Source: a virus
Direction: 5' to 3' (one strand)
UHGV virus genome: UHGV-0050054
Length of the DNA: 14,933 nt
The notes under the pieces: generated by a model
The model's input: the letters and a program-made list of their open reading frames with translations, nothing else
Database searches by the model: none
What the model was told of the DNA's origin: nothing
Made by a program: the position numbers and the translations under genes
Part shown: positions 5,428-14,862 of the stretch, piece by piece
How positions within the stretch are numbered: position 1 is the first letter of the stretch
Layout: each line of letters opens with the position of its first letter

Positions 5428-6396
5428 TTAGTAGGTTATTTTTGTTGCGAATACTTCGCCTTTTACGATGGCTGTTATGATATTTTTAGCAACATCTTCT
5501 GATGCACCAACCTTGATAAGGTCAGCAAGTATTTTGTTATTTACTTCTTTCCGGTGAGCTTTATCCTTTGCTCTACGCTCTTCTTCTTCCTTGATTCTTT
5601 TTTCTTCTGCTATTCTGGCTTGCTCTTTTGCTTCAGCCTCGCGACGGATTCGTTCAGCCTCCTCCTGTGCTTTTCTGCGTTCTGCTTCAATTGCTGCCTG
5701 CTTTTCTCTTTCAGCTCGTTCTGCTGCCTCTTTTGCTTCGCGCTGTGCTCGCTGCTCGGCTTCAATGCGTTCACGCTCTGCACGTTCCGCTGCGGCCTTA
5801 GCTTCTGCTTCTCGCCTTGCTGCTGCTTCAATTTCGGCTTTTGCCTTTGCTTCGGCTTCTGCTCTGGCTTTCTCTTCAGCTTCTCTTTTTAAGCGTTCTT
5901 CATGCTCTCGCTTTTCCTGCTCCGCTTTGAGTCTTGCCTCTTCTCTTTGGCGGTCAAATTCGCGATCCATCAAAATAGCTATTTCATGGTCAGACTCAAT
6001 TTGCTTTGCGAGAGCTTCAGCTGCTGCCTTAGCTTCTTCTTCGGCTTTAATCCGCGCCTGTTCTTCCTCATAATCAGTAAGAGGCTGGCGTGCCTTGGCT
6101 TTCAGCTCATCAAGGCGATAACGCACTGTCTTGCGGTTGGCATCAATTAGCTTTGGAATTTCCTTCAGTTCAGCAACAAGGTCTTTGCCAAGACCATCGA
6201 GATATGTTTTCGTCTGCGCAACTTTATACGCCAGAGAAGCGATCTCTTTTCTGCCCTTTGCCGTTGTGATATCAGGCACAAAGGACATAACTTCACGTTC
6301 AACCTTTTGGAGAATTTCTTCAATCTGGTCAGCAGACTGAAATACAATCATTGCATTTGCTTTTTCAATAACAACTAAATCTGTTACTTCACTCAT
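5428..6396 (-). CDS. Hypothetical protein (322 aa) with a long E/R/K/A-rich predicted single alpha-helix
   Basis: Track ORF 5428..6450; preferred start ATG 6396 with GGAGG 4 nt upstream. About 150 residues are runs such as EAEAKAKAEIEAAARREAEAKAAAERAERE; globular-looking N- and C-terminal parts. Confidence 0.65.
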   Translation of the reverse strand: MSEVTDLVVIEKANAMIVFQSADQIEEILQKVEREVMSFVPDITTAKGRKEIASLAYKVAQTKTYLDGLGKDLVAELKEIPKLIDANRKTVRYRLDELKAKARQPLTDYEEEQARIKAEEEAKAAAEALAKQIESDHEIAILMDREFDRQREEARLKAEQEKREHEERLKREAEEKARAEAEAKAKAEIEAAARREAEAKAAAERAERERIEAEQRAQREAKEAAERAEREKQAAIEAERRKAQEEAERIRREAEAKEQARIAEEKRIKEEEERRAKDKAHRKEVNNKILADLIKVGASEDVAKNIITAIVKGEVFATKITY

Positions 6397-6408
6397 ATAT
6401 CCTCCGTC

Positions 6409-6435
6409 AAAAAAATCGCCCTCACATTGGAGGGC
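6409..6435 (-). terminator. Intrinsic terminator-like hairpin just upstream of the 322-aa gene RBS
   Basis: Minus strand reads GCCCTC-caatgt-GAGGGC followed by GATTTTTTTGA (6-bp GC stem, 7-nt T run). Confidence 0.55.
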
Positions 6436-6530
6436 AAAGAAGATTTCCAATAATCAGAACAAGTCGGCTCCTGTTTAGTTATGAGCGACATTGCTCCGTG
6501 TATTCACTCGTTGGAATGAATACACAGTGC

Positions 6531-6743: not shown

Positions 6744-7018
6744 TCACCTCCCAGAGCCTTGCTGATTGCTGCCTTGGCTCGTTTGTATTCGGTTAACTCT
6801 CTGCACCCTTCGTCATGCTCGTAAAGGAAGACAAGCTCTTGCAGTGCTTCAAGCAAATCAGGAGCTGCTGCTATCAGTAGCGCATCCTCCCTTTCATTTC
6901 TTGTTGCTGCTTCAATGTATGTGTCACCAATCGTCACACCATGGAACGTAGTCATCATCTCGTTGACGTTTCTAACCGTGTACTTCCATTTACCAGGCGT
7001 ACCCTTAAACTCTTTCAT
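6740..7018 (-). CDS. Hypothetical protein (92 aa from ATG 7018; track gives GTG 7024)
   Basis: AGAGGTGG RBS about 6 nt before ATG 7018. Contains IAAAPDLLEALQELV. Lies just downstream of hairpin-box copy 1. Confidence 0.55.
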   Translation of the reverse strand: MKEFKGTPGKWKYTVRNVNEMMTTFHGVTIGDTYIEAATRNEREDALLIAAAPDLLEALQELVFLYEHDEGCRELTEYKRAKAAISKALGGE

Positions 7019-7026
7019 ATCCACCT

Positions 7027-7065
7027 CTGTTGTTTATGCCAAAAATAAAGGCCGACTATGCGGCC
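7027..7065 (-). terminator. Hairpin box copy 1, terminator-like on the minus strand
   Basis: Minus strand: GGCCG-catagt-CGGCC then TTTATTTTTGGCATAAACAACAG. Overlaps the stop of the 156-aa gene. Near-identical copy at 7570..7605. Confidence 0.5.
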
Positions 7066-7535
7066 TAGTAGAATACCCAATTTTCTGTTTCTTGGTTGTG
7101 TCCAAAGTTATATTCAATATCTGGTGTTGATGTATCAATATTCTTCATCCCATCAACAAGAGTTGATACAACAGCAAAATCTTGTTTGATTCTCATTAAA
7201 TGGTATTTCTTCCGGCGCAATAAACTCTCAATGGCAAGTTTCTTCGTTGGGAATGCAAAAGATCTTTCTGCATTTTTTGCTACTTTCTTAATTGCATATC
7301 TATTTCTCCTTTGTTTCCATTCCTGTAACCACTGATTTGGTGCTGGTTTAAAATCAACAATCCAATGCGCAGGAACCAACCATGCATAATGCTCTGTCTG
7401 ATGAAAAGCTATATATTGAAGTGCGAATATTTTGATTCCATCTTCTTCAACTGTCGCCTGGAATCTCCAGAAAACAGGCATTCCATCATGTTCAGTTTCT
7501 GATTCAGGAAAAGGTACGCTCCATGATTTTGTCAT
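7065..7535 (-). CDS. Hypothetical protein (156 aa) encoded in a low-GC cassette
   Basis: Complete ORF with GAGGTGAGAT RBS; visibly AT-richer than neighbours; basic central region (KQRRNRYAIKKVAKNAERSF...LLRRKKYHLMRIKQ). No family recognised. Confidence 0.6.
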   Translation of the reverse strand: MTKSWSVPFPESETEHDGMPVFWRFQATVEEDGIKIFALQYIAFHQTEHYAWLVPAHWIVDFKPAPNQWLQEWKQRRNRYAIKKVAKNAERSFAFPTKKLAIESLLRRKKYHLMRIKQDFAVVSTLVDGMKNIDTSTPDIEYNFGHNQETENWVFY

Positions 7536-7807: not shown

Positions 7808-8140
7808 TCACCCCTCATACAGTAGCTTACTGCCTAATTTCATTTTCTGGCGACCAACACAAGTCACACCCATTTCACTGCGTGGCTTGCTGTACCATGT
7901 GCGCTGATTCTTGCGCTCAATACGTTGCAGGTTGCTTTCAATCTGTTCGTGGTATTCAGCCAGCACCGTAAGGTCTATCGGATTCAGTGCGCTTTCTACT
8001 CGTGATTTAGGCTTTCGAGTCAGCGAGAGAATTTTGCGGGTGTCTGGCTTTGCGCTTACCCCAACCAACAGGGGATTTGCTGCTTTCCATTGAGCCTGTT
8101 TCTCTGCGCGACGTTCGCGGCGGCGTGTTTGTGCATCCAT
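7808..8140 (-). CDS. N: Antitermination protein N
   Basis: 110-aa product MDAQTRRRERRAEKQAQWKAANPLLVGVSAKP... matches lambda N as recalled over most of its length, including the Arg-rich N-terminus; AGGAG RBS; nutL upstream. Confidence 0.9.
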   Translation of the reverse strand: MDAQTRRRERRAEKQAQWKAANPLLVGVSAKPDTRKILSLTRKPKSRVESALNPIDLTVLAEYHEQIESNLQRIERKNQRTWYSKPRSEMGVTCVGRQKMKLGSKLLYEG

Positions 8141-8632: not shown

Positions 8633-9292
8633 TTAACTAAATGTCTCTTCAGGCCACTGGCTGGCGATAACTTTCCCTACTACGGAACAGCTATCATTGC
8701 ATGGAATCATTGGATATTGCTGGTTTAGTGGCTGTAGGAACACCTGACCGCTATCCCTGATCAGTTTCTTGAAGGTAAACTCGTCACCACCAAGTCTGGC
8801 TATGCAGAAATCACCTGGCTCAACAGCCTGCTCAGGGTCAACGAGAATTAACATCCCGTCAGGAAAGCTTGGCTTGGATCCTGTTGGCGCGGTCATGGAA
8901 TTACCTTCAACTTCAAGCCAGAACGCACAATCACTGGCTTTTTTGGTTGTGCTGACCCATCTCTCCGCATCACCTTTGGTAAAGGTTCTAAGCTCAGGCG
9001 AGAACATCCCGGCCTGAACATGAGAAAAAACAGGGTACTCATATTGTTTTTTAACGGGGGCAGATGAGTATTCGCCAACAGGTGAAAATGTACCGTCGTG
9101 GTTGAATGAGACGTTATCAATACCAAGGTATTTAAACACCACACCAATCTCGTCAAGAGATGGATGACGAGATCCGCGCAACCAGTGACCAATTCCACCC
9201 TGCGTCATACCAAGCTCTTCAGCTAACTTCTCTTGAGTTATGCCGAGCTCTTTCATTCTGGATCTAGCCAGTTCATACCATTTCATTTTCAT
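8633..9292 (-). CDS. cI: CI-type prophage repressor (N-terminal HTH, C-terminal LexA/S24-like domain)
   Basis: C-terminal half ([38 protein letters not shown]...[28 protein letters not shown]...[11 protein letters not shown]) matches lambda CI as recalled, apart from a few substitutions; the N-terminal HTH differs from lambda. Track ORF begins at a TTG (9334); ATG 9292 or 9286 is more likely. Confidence 0.9.
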
Positions 9293-9301
9293 ACCCTTAT
9301 T

Positions 9302-9375
9302 ATTACGCTCTGTACTAAAACCATCCATGCACAAGATGTATTTTTTGTTTGCATTCTAAAAGTACATATCGTATT
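9302..9375. promoter_or_regulatory. Putative OR operators
   Basis: ATTACgctctGTACT at 9302..9316 and AGTACatatcGTATT at 9361..9375, 60 bp apart; the second overlaps the PR spacer and -10. Confidence 0.4.
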
Positions 9376-10329: not shown

Positions 10330-11277
10330 ATGAGCAATACAGCAAAAATCTACGATTTCAGCGCCGCACACGAGCGCAGGAGCAACAGGATGGAGAACCA
10401 GAAAACTGGTTACATTCCGTTGTACCGGAGCATTCTGAAACAGTCATGGGCGAAAGATGTTTATCTTCGCACCCTGTGGGAAAACCTTCTCCTGAATGCC
10501 GCCAGAAAGCCATACAAAGCGAATTTCAAAGGTCATGAATGGCATCTGCAACCCGGTCAACTGGTTGTGACAGCAGCTGATTTAGGTCTTCAGTTATGCG
10601 ACAGGCATGGCAAGCCGGCAAGCCGTGATCAGGTTGAGCGGATGCTTCAGGTTTTTGTGAAAGAGGGGATGATCACCATTGATGGAGAGAAGCAAAAAGG
10701 TCGTGTGATCACCATCACAAATTACCATGAATATGCTCAAAAAATGGACAATTCACCCGCACATGAAGCCGCACAAACAACCGCACATGATGCCGCACAT
10801 GATGAAGCCAGTAATGGCGCGGCTTTCAGCGTACATACCGCACATGAAAGCGCACATGAAGCCGCACAAACAACCGCACATCATGAACAAGAAGGTATTA
10901 ACAAGAATATAAATAATACCCCCCTACCCCCCAATGGGGGAGGCGATGGGCAGGTTAAACATGAACGTCGCAAGGCAGAACGAATCGACTACGAATCCTT
11001 CCTGAACGCCTACAACACCGAAGTCGGTGACAGACTGCCACACGCTGTTGCGGTCAACGAGAAACGCAAACGCCGCCTGAAGAAAATCATCCCGCAACTG
11101 AAAACGCCAAACGTGGACGGTTTCAGAGCGTATGTCAGGGCGTTTGTGCATCAGGCCAAGCCGTTTTACTTCGGAGACAACGACACTGGCTGGACGGCAG
11201 ATTTTGATTACCTGCTGAGGGAAGATTCGTTAACGGGAGTTCGGGAAGGGAAGTTTGCAGACAGGGGGATTGCATGA
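10330..11277 (+). CDS. Replication initiator, lambda O-like N-terminus, with internal iteron origin
   Basis: 315-aa product; [10 protein letters not shown] resembles lambda O MTNTAKILNF; repeated [10 protein letters not shown] segments coincide with DNA iterons; stop overlaps the helicase start. Confidence 0.85.
10758..10945. repeat. Putative replication origin: iterons, AT-rich tract, GC-rich hairpin
   Basis: Identical 31-bp blocks at 10758..10788 and 10851..10881; at least 5 GCACATGA motifs; AT-rich 10886..10918; CCTACCCCCC-AAT-GGGGGAGG hairpin at about 10925..10945. Same layout as lambda ori inside O. Confidence 0.6.
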
Positions 11278-12650
11278 AACAGGATATCGAAGCGAGCGTT
11301 ATCGGTGGCTTGCTGATTGGTGGATTAACACCAACTGCCAGTGACGTTCTGGCAACGCTTGAGCCGGAAGCGTTTTCAATTCCGCTCTACAGGAAAGCCT
11401 TCGAAGTTATCCGTAAGCAGGCGAGAAACAGAAATCTAATCGACGCGCTGATGGTTGCCGAGGCGTGCGGAGAGGAGCATTTCACGTCAATCCTGATGAC
11501 CAGCAAAAACTGCCCGAGTGCCGCAAACCTGAAGGGATATGCCGGAATGGTCGCGGATAACTATCACCGCCGTCTGGTGCTGGAAATCATGGATGAAATG
11601 CGTGAACCAATTCAGAGCGGAACCATCGACGCATCGAGTCAGGCGATGGATGAACTTGTAAAGCGTCTCTCAGCCATCAGAAAGCCCCGTGACGAGGTTA
11701 AACCGGTACGCTTAGGGGAAATCATCACTGACTACACCGACACGCTTGACAGGCGTCTGAGGAACGGAGAAGAGTCCGATACCCTGAAGACCGGAATCGA
11801 AGAACTTGATGCCATCACCGGAGGGATGAACGCAGAAGACCTTGTGATAATCGCTGCTCGTCCTGGTATGGGGAAAACCGAACTGGCGCTGAAGATTGCC
11901 GAAGGCGTTGCAAGCCGCGTTATTCCTGGTTCTGACGTCCGGCGCGGAGTGTTGATTTTCTCGATGGAAATGAGTGCATTGCAGATTGCAGAGCGAAGTA
12001 TTGCCAACGCCGGGAGGATGTCGGTTAGCGTGCTGCGAAATCCTGCATCGATGGATGACGAAGGCTGGGCGCGCGTTGCTAACGGCATGAGTCAGCTTGC
12101 AGATTTGGATGTATGGGTAGTCGATGCCTCGCGGTTATCGGTCGAAGAAATACGCTCAATCGCAGAACGGCACAAACAGGAAAATCCAAACCTCTCACTC
12201 ATCATGGCGGATTATCTTGGCCTGATTGAGAAGCCGAAAGCAGACCGCAACGACCTCGCAATTGCTCACATCTCAGGAAGCCTGAAGGCGATGGCGAAAG
12301 ACTTGAAAACGCCTGTTATCTCCCTGAGTCAGCTTTCGCGCGATGTTGAGAAGCGACCAAACAAACGCCCGACAAACGCAGATTTGCGTGATTCAGGAAG
12401 CATTGAGCAGGACGCAGACTCAATCATCATGCTCTATCGGGAAGCGGTATATGACGAGAACAGTAGCGCCGCGCCATTTGCTGAAATCATCGTGACGAAA
12501 AACCGTTTTGGCTCACTTGGTACGGTTTACCAGCGGTTCTGTAACGGACACTTTGTTGCATGTGACCAGGATGAAGCCAGACAGATTTGCACAGCATCAA
12601 ATGCACCTGCTGCGCGTGGCAGACGATATGCACAAGGGGCGGACGTATGA
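11274..12650 (+). CDS. Replicative DNA helicase, DnaB family
   Basis: 458-aa product with Walker A-like [15 protein letters not shown] and DnaB-type C-terminal motifs; ATGA overlap with the initiator gene. Confidence 0.9.
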
Positions 12651-12675
12651 CCATCTACATCACTGAGATAATAAC

Positions 12676-12706
12676 AGGGGCTATTTACACAGTAGCCCTT
12701 TTTTAT
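12676..12706 (+). terminator. Intrinsic terminator after the helicase gene
   Basis: AGGGGCTA-tttacacag-TAGCCCT followed by TTTTTT, 26 nt after the helicase stop. Confidence 0.7.
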
Positions 12707-12731
12707 TGGATTGGAAGTGAGAGGTGATAGC

Positions 12732-12899
12732 GTGAGTGAACCATCTAAACATGCGCAGTATTGCCCATTCTGCCAGCGTCATATTGAGCCTGAGCGAGAT
12801 GATTTAGGCGATCTGTACATTACACATGAAGGCGGATTTATTTATGTGCACGACGAAGTACTACACGATGACGATTACACATTTACGCCACTTAACTAA
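12732..12899 (+). CDS. Small hypothetical protein (about 55 aa, GTG start)
   Basis: Track ORF starts at TTG 12711; GTG 12732 has GAGGTGA 5 nt upstream. Confidence 0.45.
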   Translation: MSEPSKHAQYCPFCQRHIEPERDDLGDLYITHEGGFIYVHDEVLHDDDYTFTPLN

Positions 12900-12926
12900 C
12901 ATCCAGCACGCTGACGGAGAGGAATG

Positions 12927-13247
12927 ATGAGTAACGAAAATGGATTAATTGAATGGTTGCAAAGCGGCGAATATCTTCCTGGCTTTCTACGCGACTTTCA
13001 CGACCAGAAAGATGTGTTTAAGGCTATGCACGACACAATTGGGAATGCTAACGAAAACGGTAATGCCAGAGATGGGCATATCTATGTTATTGACACCTTT
13101 CTTTGGTACATGGCCCGATGCGGTTACACCTTGCAGAAATCAAGGAAAAATGTCGAATTTAAAGATATGCAGGATGACATTGAGCGCAGCAAAGAATGGC
13201 GGCGTGAGGCATTTTCTCGTGTTATTTCAGAACAGCACAAAGTCTAG
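12927..13247 (+). CDS. Hypothetical nin-region protein (106 aa)
   Basis: Complete ORF; GGAG about 7 nt before ATG 12927. No family recognised. Confidence 0.6.
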   Translation: MSNENGLIEWLQSGEYLPGFLRDFHDQKDVFKAMHDTIGNANENGNARDGHIYVIDTFLWYMARCGYTLQKSRKNVEFKDMQDDIERSKEWRREAFSRVISEQHKV

Positions 13248-13261
13248 TGATGGAGAGGAAT

Positions 13262-13531
13262 ATGGACGAATCAAGAAAGCAGTTTGAAGAATGGTTTGAA
13301 AATTACACCGGATGTGATCATAAAAATAAAATATACGCCAATATGGTTGAGATGTATTGGCAAGCGTGGCAGGCATCGCGAGCAGCTATTGAAATAACCG
13401 CGCCAAAGTTTATCGACAGCAGAGAAGCATTAGCCAAAGGGTTTACTGTTGATTATTCCAATGGCTTCGGTGATGGAATGGATGCTTATGAGGAAAACAT
13501 CCGCGCTGCTGGAGTCAAAGTGAAGGAGTAA
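13262..13531 (+). CDS. Hypothetical nin-region protein (89 aa; alternative starts at 13247 or 13250)
   Basis: GGAG 6 nt before ATG 13262; Trp-rich N-terminus (QFEEWFENYTG...EMYWQAWQ). Confidence 0.55.
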   Translation: MDESRKQFEEWFENYTGCDHKNKIYANMVEMYWQAWQASRAAIEITAPKFIDSREALAKGFTVDYSNGFGDGMDAYEENIRAAGVKVKE

Positions 13532-13533
13532 CG

Positions 13534-13944
13534 ATGAAGCAAACAATCTTCCTCCGAACTAAGCAACAACAGCAAGCCGCAATAAATGCCATCCTCGCAA
13601 CACCACTCGATAAAGACAAGCCAGTTACCATCCGCATTACTGACTACAAGCGCAATCTTGACCAGAACGCAAAATTTCACGCGATGGTCGCAGATATCGC
13701 TCGTCAGGTTCAATGGTGCGGCAAATGGTTAAAACCAGAACAATGGAAGGTTTTGTTGATTAGCGGTCATGCAGTGGCAACAAAGCAGGAAGCTGATGTT
13801 TTGCCCGGGCTTGAAGGCGAATACGTCAACATTCGCGAAAGTAGCGCGCAGATGAGCGTGAAGCGCATGGCAAGCCTGATTGAGTACACGACAGCATGGG
13901 CTATTGGTCAGGGTGTCAGATTTACCGACAGGAGGTACGAATGA
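13534..13944 (+). CDS. ninB: NinB-family protein
   Basis: 136-aa product; [33 protein letters not shown] parallels lambda NinB RSLDQNRKLWACLGDVSRQVEWHGRWLDAESWK as recalled; AAGGAG RBS. Confidence 0.8.
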
Positions 13945-14117
13945 GACGACAGCGACGAAGTATCACCGACATCATCTGCGAAAACTGCAAATACCTTCCA
14001 ACGAAACGCTCCAGAAATAAACGCAAGCCAATCCCAAAAGAATCTGACGTAAAAACCTTCAACTACACGGCTCACCTGTGGGATATCCGGTGGCTAAGAC
14101 ATCGTGCGAGGAAATGA
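13941..14117 (+). CDS. ninE: NinE-like small basic protein (58 aa)
   Basis: ATG 13941 with GGAGG RBS, overlapping the ninB stop (ATGA); product [36 protein letters not shown]... Assignment from memory. Confidence 0.55.
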
Positions 14118-14488
14118 CAATGGATTATTCACAGTTAAGTGATTTTGAAATTAACAGAATGGTAGGAGACATAATTTTTAAAGGCCTTTGGGCATGTAAA
14201 CCGGAAACGTCAGGGAATAACACCAACAAATGGTATTACGGAAATGCTGATACAACTTTTGAGCCATTAAACCCTTTACCTGACTACTGCAATGATCCGA
14301 GCGCCTCATGGCCTGTAATCGCAAAACATCATATCAGCATATGTGCATACGAAAGAAATAATCCTGGAATGAAGAATGAATATTGGTGGGAGGCAGATAG
14401 ATTTTGTGAATTTATTACCATAGACAACAACCCACTCCGCGCCGCCATGATTGTATTTCTCATGATGCAGGACGCCAATAATGCTTAG
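14114..14488 (+). CDS. Hypothetical nin-region protein (about 124 aa; alternative start 14120)
   Basis: ATG 14114 overlaps the NinE-like stop; ATG 14120 has better spacing from GAGG. Trp/Tyr-rich; no family recognised. Confidence 0.55.
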
Positions 14489-14657
14489 CCCATCCCAATC
14501 CATTCAATACCAGAAAGAAAGCGTCGAGCGGGCTTTAACGTGCGCTAACTGCGGTCAGAAGCTGCATGTGCTGGAAGTTCATGTGTGTGAGCACTGCTGC
14601 GCAGAACTGATGAGCGATCCGAATAGCTCAATGTACGAGGAAGAAGACGATGAGTGA
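14481..14657 (+). CDS. ninF: NinF-like small Cys-rich protein (58 aa)
   Basis: Not in track. Manual translation [58 protein letters not shown]; resembles lambda NinF as recalled. Confidence 0.55.
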   Translation: MLSPSQSIQYQKESVERALTCANCGQKLHVLEVHVCEHCCAELMSDPNSSMYEEEDDE

Positions 14658-14862
14658 TTACCTGAAATGGTATCTCTGCCACCGCTGGTTAATTAAGTGT
14701 GCTGTAAAAGACTGGATGACAGCGGATGCCAACAAGCTTAAGCAAAGAAAAGACTATTACTACGCCAGAATGAAGGAAAACTACTGCTCAATTCGCACTC
14801 GCATATTTATTAAAAAAGACCTTCAGTCAATTCTTCAATTGCGAGGGAAGGTAAATGGCTAA
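14650..14862 (+). CDS. Hypothetical protein (70 aa)
   Basis: Track ORF overlapping the NinF-like stop; AT-rich; no strong RBS seen. Confidence 0.4.
   Translation: MSDYLKWYLCHRWLIKCAVKDWMTADANKLKQRKDYYYARMKENYCSIRTRIFIKKDLQSILQLRGKVNG

Follow-up and report, generated by a model that had tools for sequence, protein, structure and literature searches.

Genes of the early region

The window considered here, which is the whole stretch of DNA that was analysed (14,933 nucleotides of the virus genome UHGV-0050054), represents the early region of an E. coli phage, a lambdoid mosaic of the P22/HK97 type. The minus strand carries an Ead/Ea22-like gene, Gp157, RecT, a lambda-type N antiterminator gene (positions 7808-8140; Pfam N36, E = 3.8e-23) and a cI-type repressor (8633-9334). 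The plus strand carries cII, an O-type initiator (10330-11277), a replicative helicase of the DnaB type (11274-12650; Pfam DnaB_C 9.5e-78 and DnaB 4e-13) and, later, NinB, NinE, NinX and NinF. In E. coli G3, which has a nearly identical prophage, the helicase is named 'replicative DNA helicase' by RefSeq. The closest phage DNA matches span only 35-50% of the window, with an identity of approximately 97%, and such partial coverage is the usual picture in lambdoid mosaics.

The interval of interest begins downstream of N, cI, cII, O and the helicase. Its conserved left flank is the helicase gene and its conserved right flank is ninB (13534-13944, plus strand; Pfam NinB 4.1e-55, PHROG 72), the gene of the Orf recombination mediator, with the genes of NinE, NinX and NinF downstream. 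Three open reading frames lie between the helicase terminator and ninB, as an earlier note on this DNA had proposed, and all of them are on the plus strand: ORF1 (12732-12899), ORF2 (12924-13247) and ORF3 (13262-13531). The genes are tightly packed, with intergenic gaps of 4, 24, 14 and 2 nt, the last one between ORF3 and ninB. Tight packing of this kind has been described for nin regions (PMC8022706). The GC content of the cassette interval is 43%, compared with 51% in the replication genes.

ninA and the terminator

The stop codon of the helicase overlaps, within the sequence ATGA, the start of a mini-ORF on the plus strand (12647-12727) which codes for a hydrophobic product of 26 residues. 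This product aligns with P22 NinA (MTIYITELVTGLLVIAGLFIWGRGKT) and with HK97 gp56. An intrinsic terminator is located inside this ninA gene on the same strand, with a tR2-like hairpin and T-run at 12676-12706 (stem 12676-12700). The terminator scan gave a 10-bp stem followed by TTTTATT, and the RNA folds with -17.2 kcal/mol (z = -4.17), while none of 200 shuffled sequences folds as well. In P22 the terminator is annotated at the homologous position, likewise inside ninA. In the DNA alignment the stems of P22 and of the window are distinguished by paired changes, which indicates that the hairpin itself is conserved.

The three genes had been described earlier as a replacement of the ren/ninA interval of lambda. 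They do take the position of lambda ren, but ninA is kept at its place and the genes are inserted after it. The three-gene cargo therefore sits between ninA and ninB. The identification of ORF3 with P22 NinA was also considered and was rejected, because NinA is the separate 26-residue ORF.

Reality and general properties of the three genes

Each of the three starts is preceded by a Shine-Dalgarno sequence of the GAGG/GGAG type, and each of the three products matches one PHROG phage family from end to end. The dN/dS values, calculated by the Nei-Gojobori method against diverged homologues, are 0.11 for ORF1, 0.06-0.07 for ORF2 and 0.35-0.43 for ORF3; all three genes are subject to purifying selection, which is strong in ORF1 and ORF2. 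The reading frames are short, and RefSeq annotates all three in the E. coli G3 prophage only as 'hypothetical protein', so that they might be taken for chance frames or for decayed, functionless remnants. This is hardly credible in view of the full-length matches to families which span several bacterial phyla, the dN/dS values of 0.06-0.11 for ORF1 and ORF2, the good Shine-Dalgarno sequence at every start and the motifs that are invariant across the families. The three proteins are in fact already catalogued in PHROGs and in RefSeq, and ORF3 also in Pfam.

The predicted isoelectric points are 4.5, 5.8 and 4.9 for ORF1, ORF2 and ORF3, respectively. No transmembrane segment was found in any of the three proteins, and no enzyme-like or known DNA-binding domain; all three are regarded as cytoplasmic proteins of acidic to mildly acidic character. 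The local Pfam copy and NCBIfam gave no family for them, while the same Pfam copy recognizes NinB, NinE, NinX and NinF alongside. The defence models of PADLOC-DB v2 gave no match at E <= 1, and searches of the PDB sequences with single sequences and with family profiles returned matches at the level of chance only. Altogether, no similarity to a characterised protein was found in Pfam, NCBIfam, PADLOC, PDB sequences or PDB folds. No papers were found in the literature on the names of the families, on PF26207, on the PHROG identifiers or on the sequence motifs, and the supplements of two screens of accessory genes, including the sequence tables of Silas et al., do not contain the family motifs.

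The three proteins were compared with the housekeeping proteins of the nin region, to which a confident homology would have spoken against the earlier note. None was found: in BLASTP against lambda P and NinB-I, against P22 NinA, B, D, E, X, F, G, Y, H and Z, and against HK97 gp56 and gp60, the best E value was 1.1 or worse.

ORF1

ORF1 codes for an acidic protein of 55 residues with a GTG start (12732-12899) and belongs to phrog_36993 (E = 1.1e-39). The profile match is over the full length, and the protein contains the pattern C-x2-C ... H-x4-H. In an alignment of 18 members of the family, residues C11, C14, H40 and D41 are invariant and H45 is at least 90% conserved, and the general pattern of the family can be written as YCPFCQR..(about 20 residues)..YVHD..V.HDDDY. 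From these four conserved residues alone, the two Cys and the two His, the pattern is considered to be a putative CCHH zinc knuckle.

The family is rare. Only 19 matches were obtained among 1.84 billion representative proteins, with about 16 genuine clusters of proteins of approximately 50 residues; three long matches were rejected as repeat-protein artefacts. Among 5426 complete E. coli genomes, five have ORF1. Only two records of phages contain it, one being a lambdoid siphovirus from bat faeces and the other a Vibrio phage.

ORF2

ORF2 (12924-13247) has an ATG start and codes for an all-helical protein of 107 residues. It belongs to phrog_15705 (E = 4.5e-52), with residues 1-105 matching positions 1-106 of the 106 positions of the profile. 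The characteristic motif is LP..F.RDFHDQKD.FKA ... D.FLW.MA..GY.LQ. Among 111 diverse members of the family, residues L18, P19, F32, D57, F59, L60 and G67 are invariant, and residues W11, D24, F25, H26, Q28, K29, K33, W61, M63, A64, Y68, L70 and Q71 are at least 90% conserved.

A profile constructed from distant members collects 2385 proteins, none of which has a Pfam domain. The family is far larger than a search with the single sequence implies. Its members are found in phages of Proteobacteria, Bacteroidota and cyanobacteria, with hosts including Klebsiella, Yersinia, Vibrio, Shewanella, Pseudoalteromonas, Cellulophaga/Flavobacterium and Synechococcus, and they occur also in T4-like cyanophages and in a Shewanella myovirus of 134 kb. 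A Foldseek search of BFVD with ORF2 retrieved its own family only, and no structural match was found in the PDB. No fused domain could be recognised in the long members of the family. One homologue carries the JGI label 'exonuclease I', which was set aside as being without Pfam support. The phage family of ORF2 is thus very widespread and under strong constraint, and it has neither an annotation nor a structural relative.

The neighbours of the ORF2 homologues were compared in 80 IMG/VR viral loci. A conserved neighbour was not found, the largest neighbour cluster being present in 6 of the 80 loci, and the proposal of a conserved partner gene was rejected. The phage integrase is the only Pfam family that recurs beside the homologues (7 of 134 neighbour proteins). 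The other neighbours are scattered early genes, such as those of replication protein P, SSB, RecT, methylases and NinX. Some homologues adjoin integrases or stand alone on the opposite strand inside structural modules. A gene for a 108-residue protein, which is found at the position of ORF2 in other prophages, was examined as a possible relative and was rejected (E = 2.1).

ORF3

ORF3 (13262-13531) codes for an acidic protein of 89 residues. Its ATG start has been adopted here; an alternative in-frame GTG start upstream, at 13247, is also possible. The protein matches phrog_343 over residues 1-89 (E = 1.6e-28). The corresponding Pfam family is Phage_phiTE_015 (PF26207), and this assignment is by proxy: a precomputed PF26207 match is present in all 120 listed homologues of ORF3 (62-98% identical), while the local Pfam copy gives no PF26207 match for any member. 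A protein with 97% identity to ORF3 is named 'phiTE_015 family protein' by RefSeq.

The family is present in 176 phage records. In every fetched lambdoid locus with a member, the gene either adjoins ninB on its upstream side or is separated from it by one small ORF. The earlier note pointed to exclusion or anti-exclusion cargo in this slot; ORF3 is not exotic cargo, since its family is the usual one upstream of ninB.

The ORF3 family is internally mosaic. A conserved start, MDESRKQFEEWF, is followed by a hypervariable middle of very different lengths. Then come the segment WQASRAAIEI, which is conserved, C-terminal modules of alternative kinds and, at the end, the likewise conserved IRAAGVKVKE. 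In the AlphaFold2 model of ORF3, which has moderate confidence (pLDDT 72), a helical hairpin is followed by a small C-terminal part. The ribosome-binding site of ninB is located inside the last codons of ORF3 (GTG AAG GAG TAA), and GTGAAGGAGTAAcgATG joins the stop codon of ORF3 to the start of ninB. At the DNA level, phages such as mEp235 match only the 3' 167 bp of ORF3, with 97.6% identity. This fits conserved joints which act as recombination points: the conserved ends of ORF3, including the ribosome-binding site of ninB, are probably the joints at which cassettes are swapped. ORF3 in this way illustrates the swapping of modules inside a single small gene.

The slot in related phages

The gene content of the interval was compared across lambdoid genomes, as had been suggested earlier, and it proved to be truly variable in P22, HK97, CUS-3, lambda and others. 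The slot of P22 contains ninA only and leads straight to ninB. The slots of HK97 and CUS-3 contain ninA and one gene for a 70-residue protein (gp60 in HK97; phrog_6308), those of mEp235 and 683R2 contain two genes each, and that of a Yersinia phage contains four, with the members of the ORF2 and ORF3 families in the opposite order. In lambda the slot, between P and ninB, is occupied by ren. Several other combinations of genes are carried by eight E. coli prophages. The occupants belong to at least nine different PHROGs, all of them families of unknown function. The replication module upstream varies too and can code for a DnaB-type helicase, a DnaC-type ATPase or a toprim primase.

In about 20 fetched loci the flanks are conserved and the content between them is unrelated, which is what is expected of a phage accessory region; it ranges from no gene beyond ninA in P22 to four genes, and other lambdoid phages and prophages have two, three or four. 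Between the replication genes and ninB there is thus a variable slot, the contents of which are exchanged gene by gene. In the window the slot belongs to the early-right (pR) operon and is an accessory region of the cassette type, with three unrelated small genes. It is a known kind of feature, non-essential and prone to swapping, and represents ordinary lambdoid mosaicism.

The three genes are adjacent, co-oriented and tightly spaced, and they might therefore be considered as one three-component system, for example a module of the toxin-antitoxin-like or sensor-effector kind. ORF2 is present in four of the 5426 complete E. coli genomes and is accompanied by ORF1 in all four, and ORF3-family genes flank the ORF2 homologues in 12 of the 80 viral loci. 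However, ORF1 is paired with a different middle gene, coding for 65-66 residues, in two loci (L017 and L019), and ORF3 is accompanied elsewhere by entirely different partner genes. ORF2 is found alone in most phages, and the ORF1 family occurs in just 2 of the 80 ORF2 loci. The exact trio of the window is present in no complete E. coli genome, the best match having 91% coverage in two pieces. The independent assortment of the three genes indicates that they are not one system, and a joint system of this kind appears very improbable.

Expression and possible function

A simple sigma-70 consensus scan, which can miss weak or activated promoters, found no promoter-like site on the plus strand in 12300-14200. 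The terminator scan found no terminator 3' of the cassette, the sole strong terminator being the one upstream of it, and no Rfam RNA family was found within 12400-13800. The cassette, with neither an own promoter upstream nor an own terminator downstream, does not have the organization of a moron. Its arrangement suggests that the three genes would be silent in the lysogen and transcribed only in lytic growth, as delayed-early genes, and that their expression would depend on N, which would let RNA polymerase read through the terminator at 12676-12700.

In the exclusion half of the idea in the earlier note, one or more of the genes would be expressed in the lysogen, for exclusion or defence, and would block superinfecting phages. 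This is difficult to reconcile with the organization of the cassette. With its low GC content (43%) and its sporadic distribution the cassette resembles typical morons, and the ORF2 homologues that lie beside integrases, or alone on the opposite strand within structural modules, would also fit such a role. However, the cassette has no promoter-like site before or within it and belongs to the repressed pR operon, in which a terminator precedes it; on its other side it passes without a terminator, over a gap of 2 nt, into ninB. The proteins have no PADLOC match and no membrane segment, and the ORF2 family is present in large myoviruses, namely the T4-like cyanophages and the 134-kb Shewanella virus. 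A role in exclusion by the prophage is consequently regarded as unlikely.

The account that we favour, although we would give it slightly less than an even chance, is that the cassette is an accessory slot of the pR operon coding for delayed-early proteins which bind host or phage proteins. The suggested mode of action, in which each of the three proteins binds one host or phage protein one-to-one during lytic growth and serves host takeover or counter-defence, we infer with reserve. One-to-one binding is preferred to catalysis because the three proteins are small, acidic and non-enzymatic. The role in lytic growth is favoured because relatives of ORF2 are found in the T4-like cyanophages and the large Shewanella myovirus, which we take to be strictly lytic. 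ORF1 would probably bind its partner by means of the CCHH zinc knuckle, and ORF2 probably by a surface formed by the invariant DFHDQK and FLW motifs. In ORF3 the conserved helical hairpin is probably joined to a C-terminal module that can be exchanged. The favoured role in lytic growth would agree with what has been proposed for variable accessory regions in general (bioRxiv 10.1101/2023.04.06.535777) and with the precedent of Ren at this position in lambda.

The location of the genes also allows a different proposal, in which the three proteins are accessory modulators of replication or recombination alongside NinB/Orf, binding for example SSB, the helicase or recombination proteins. The cassette sits between the replication genes and ninB, and the ORF3-family genes are close to ninB translationally, with a gap of 2 nt and the ribosome-binding site of ninB inside ORF3. 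Homologues of ORF1 and ORF2 in unrelated phages adjoin genes for an RdgC-like exonuclease, dUTPase, UvsW, SSB, RecT or methylases, and the frequent replication, recombination and methylase neighbours of ORF2 fit a role in DNA metabolism equally well. On the other hand, the slots of P22, HK97 and lambda are without these genes, which shows that none of them is needed for lambdoid replication or recombination. Of the 5426 complete E. coli genomes only five contain ORF1 and only four ORF2, the neighbours of ORF2 are not conserved, and the acidic isoelectric points speak against direct binding to DNA. Modulation of replication or recombination is a rather improbable explanation, but it is the main rival of the favoured account.

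The binding of host or phage proteins in lytic growth can be extended to a bolder proposal for ORF2. Its large and unrecognised family may have a fold that is absent from solved structures, and the DFHDQK/FLW surface may target either a component that is conserved widely among bacteria or a signal in the form of a small molecule, so that the family would be a new class of counter-defence or host-takeover proteins. ORF1 and the modular ORF3 would then be further independent inhibitors in the slot. We consider this extension to be rather improbable as a whole. ORF2 is the most interesting element of the cassette, and the practical value of the slot is that it points to the ORF2 family. The known repertoire of anti-defence proteins would grow if any of the three proteins proved to be an inhibitor of a host defence.

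Comparison with known systems

The end of the helicase gene, the ninA mini-ORF and the terminator of the window are homologous to and collinear with those of P22 and HK97. The difference begins after ninA, where P22 has no gene, HK97 and CUS-3 have one unrelated gene for a 70-residue protein, and the window has three others. In mEp235, gp47 (annotated as similar to Sf6 gene 48) is 63% identical to ORF3 and is found in the same place before ninB. The hypervariable middle segment of ORF3 is a variant of its own when compared with other members of phrog_343. Other members of Phage_phiTE_015, a family to which the 144-residue protein of 683R2 also belongs, carry inserts, N-terminal extensions or alternative C-terminal modules.

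It is of interest to compare the slot with lambda Ren, a small, non-essential protein that protects from Rex exclusion. The ren gene has the same position in the early-right operon as ORF1-ORF3, between the replication genes and ninB. However, no sequence similarity of Ren (96 residues) to any of the three proteins was found by BLASTP (no match at E <= 10), in agreement with the earlier impression that they do not resemble it. To our knowledge, ren is the only gene of the slot with a known phenotype, which is anti-exclusion. A Ren-like anti-exclusion (anti-defence) role may also be played by the cassette.

The accessory regions described by Silas et al. are like the slot, as they consist of variable small genes amid core genes and are horizontally exchanged, although their supplementary sequence tables contain none of the three genes (bioRxiv 10.1101/2023.04.06.535777). 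Counter-defence genes are found enriched in variable regions of this kind, with core genes on either side (bioRxiv 10.1101/2023.04.06.535777). If inhibition of defence should prove to be true for any of the three genes described here, the interval before ninB would be a hunting ground for such proteins, as lambda Ren hints.

Mosaic structure of the ORF3 family

The ORF3 family, represented in the window by the 89-residue product of 13262-13531 (+), displays mosaicism within a single gene of about 90 residues. In the family alignment (A1), three conserved joints can be recognized, MDESRKQFEEWF, WQASRAAIEI and IRAAGVKVKE. These joints set apart a hypervariable middle section and the C-terminal modules, which come in at least three alternative forms. 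The ribosome-binding site of ninB overlaps with the last of the joints.

One variant of this family, P0238, is very common and is found on at least 1000 contigs. It is labelled in some sources as a "VOC family protein". Its match to Glyoxalase_4 is only below threshold (E = 1.7e-4; 22 bits, the cutoff being 27). Over-annotation is the probable source of this label; alternatively, a distinct C-terminal module may account for it.

The distance from ORF3 to ninB is 2 nt in the window, while in the closest prophage, that of E. coli G3 (L001), the ORF3 homologue is separated from ninB by about 200 bp of non-coding DNA (6926-7126). A similar spacer of 200 bp is present in E. coli 81EVA (L018).

Pairing with ORF2 and a related block in phage BUCT610

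Genes of the ORF2 family (window 12924-13247, +) are directly adjoined by ORF3-family genes, on either side, in 12 of the 80 viral loci; such neighbours occur in L057, L058, L063, L064, L078, L086 and the Yersinia phage L005. Among these adjoining ORF2 copies, some share no more than about 50% identity with that of the window. This adjacency is the sole recurrent pairing seen, and it may simply reflect common residence in the slot upstream of ninB.

A small block of five genes ending with an ORF2 homologue was found in Klebsiella phage BUCT610 (L004, 4046-5294), a phage of about 47 kb. The block includes a gene of the DUF2591/NinX family and is transcribed in the direction opposite to the adjoining tape-measure gene. 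The block resembles a transplanted nin-like fragment in an otherwise unrelated genome.

Other open reading frames of the window

A 70-residue ORF without family follows NinF (14650-14862, +), its only match being a weak, sub-threshold one to GNAT_C (E = 0.0019). A "hypothetical protein" of similar length likewise follows NinF in the G3 prophage. For four sizeable early-left ORFs of the minus strand, of 340 (5428-6450), 271 (2068-2883), 207 (470-1093) and 156 residues (7065-7535), no Pfam family was found. The related G3 prophage and phage 683R2 each have a gene here that is annotated as "TolA", a name unlikely to apply literally.

The ninA ORF and its terminator

The tiny hydrophobic ninA ORF (window 12647-12727) is also conserved in P22 (L003, 34673-34753), HK97 (L012, 2497-2595) and CUS-3. 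Its N-terminus (MTIYITELIT...) recurs in E. coli N9, fused there to a protein of 133 residues (phrog_5907 and phrog_5903). A tR2-like terminator hairpin is located inside ninA in P22, HK97, CUS-3 and the window alike, and the hairpin stems of the window and P22 are distinguished by paired changes.
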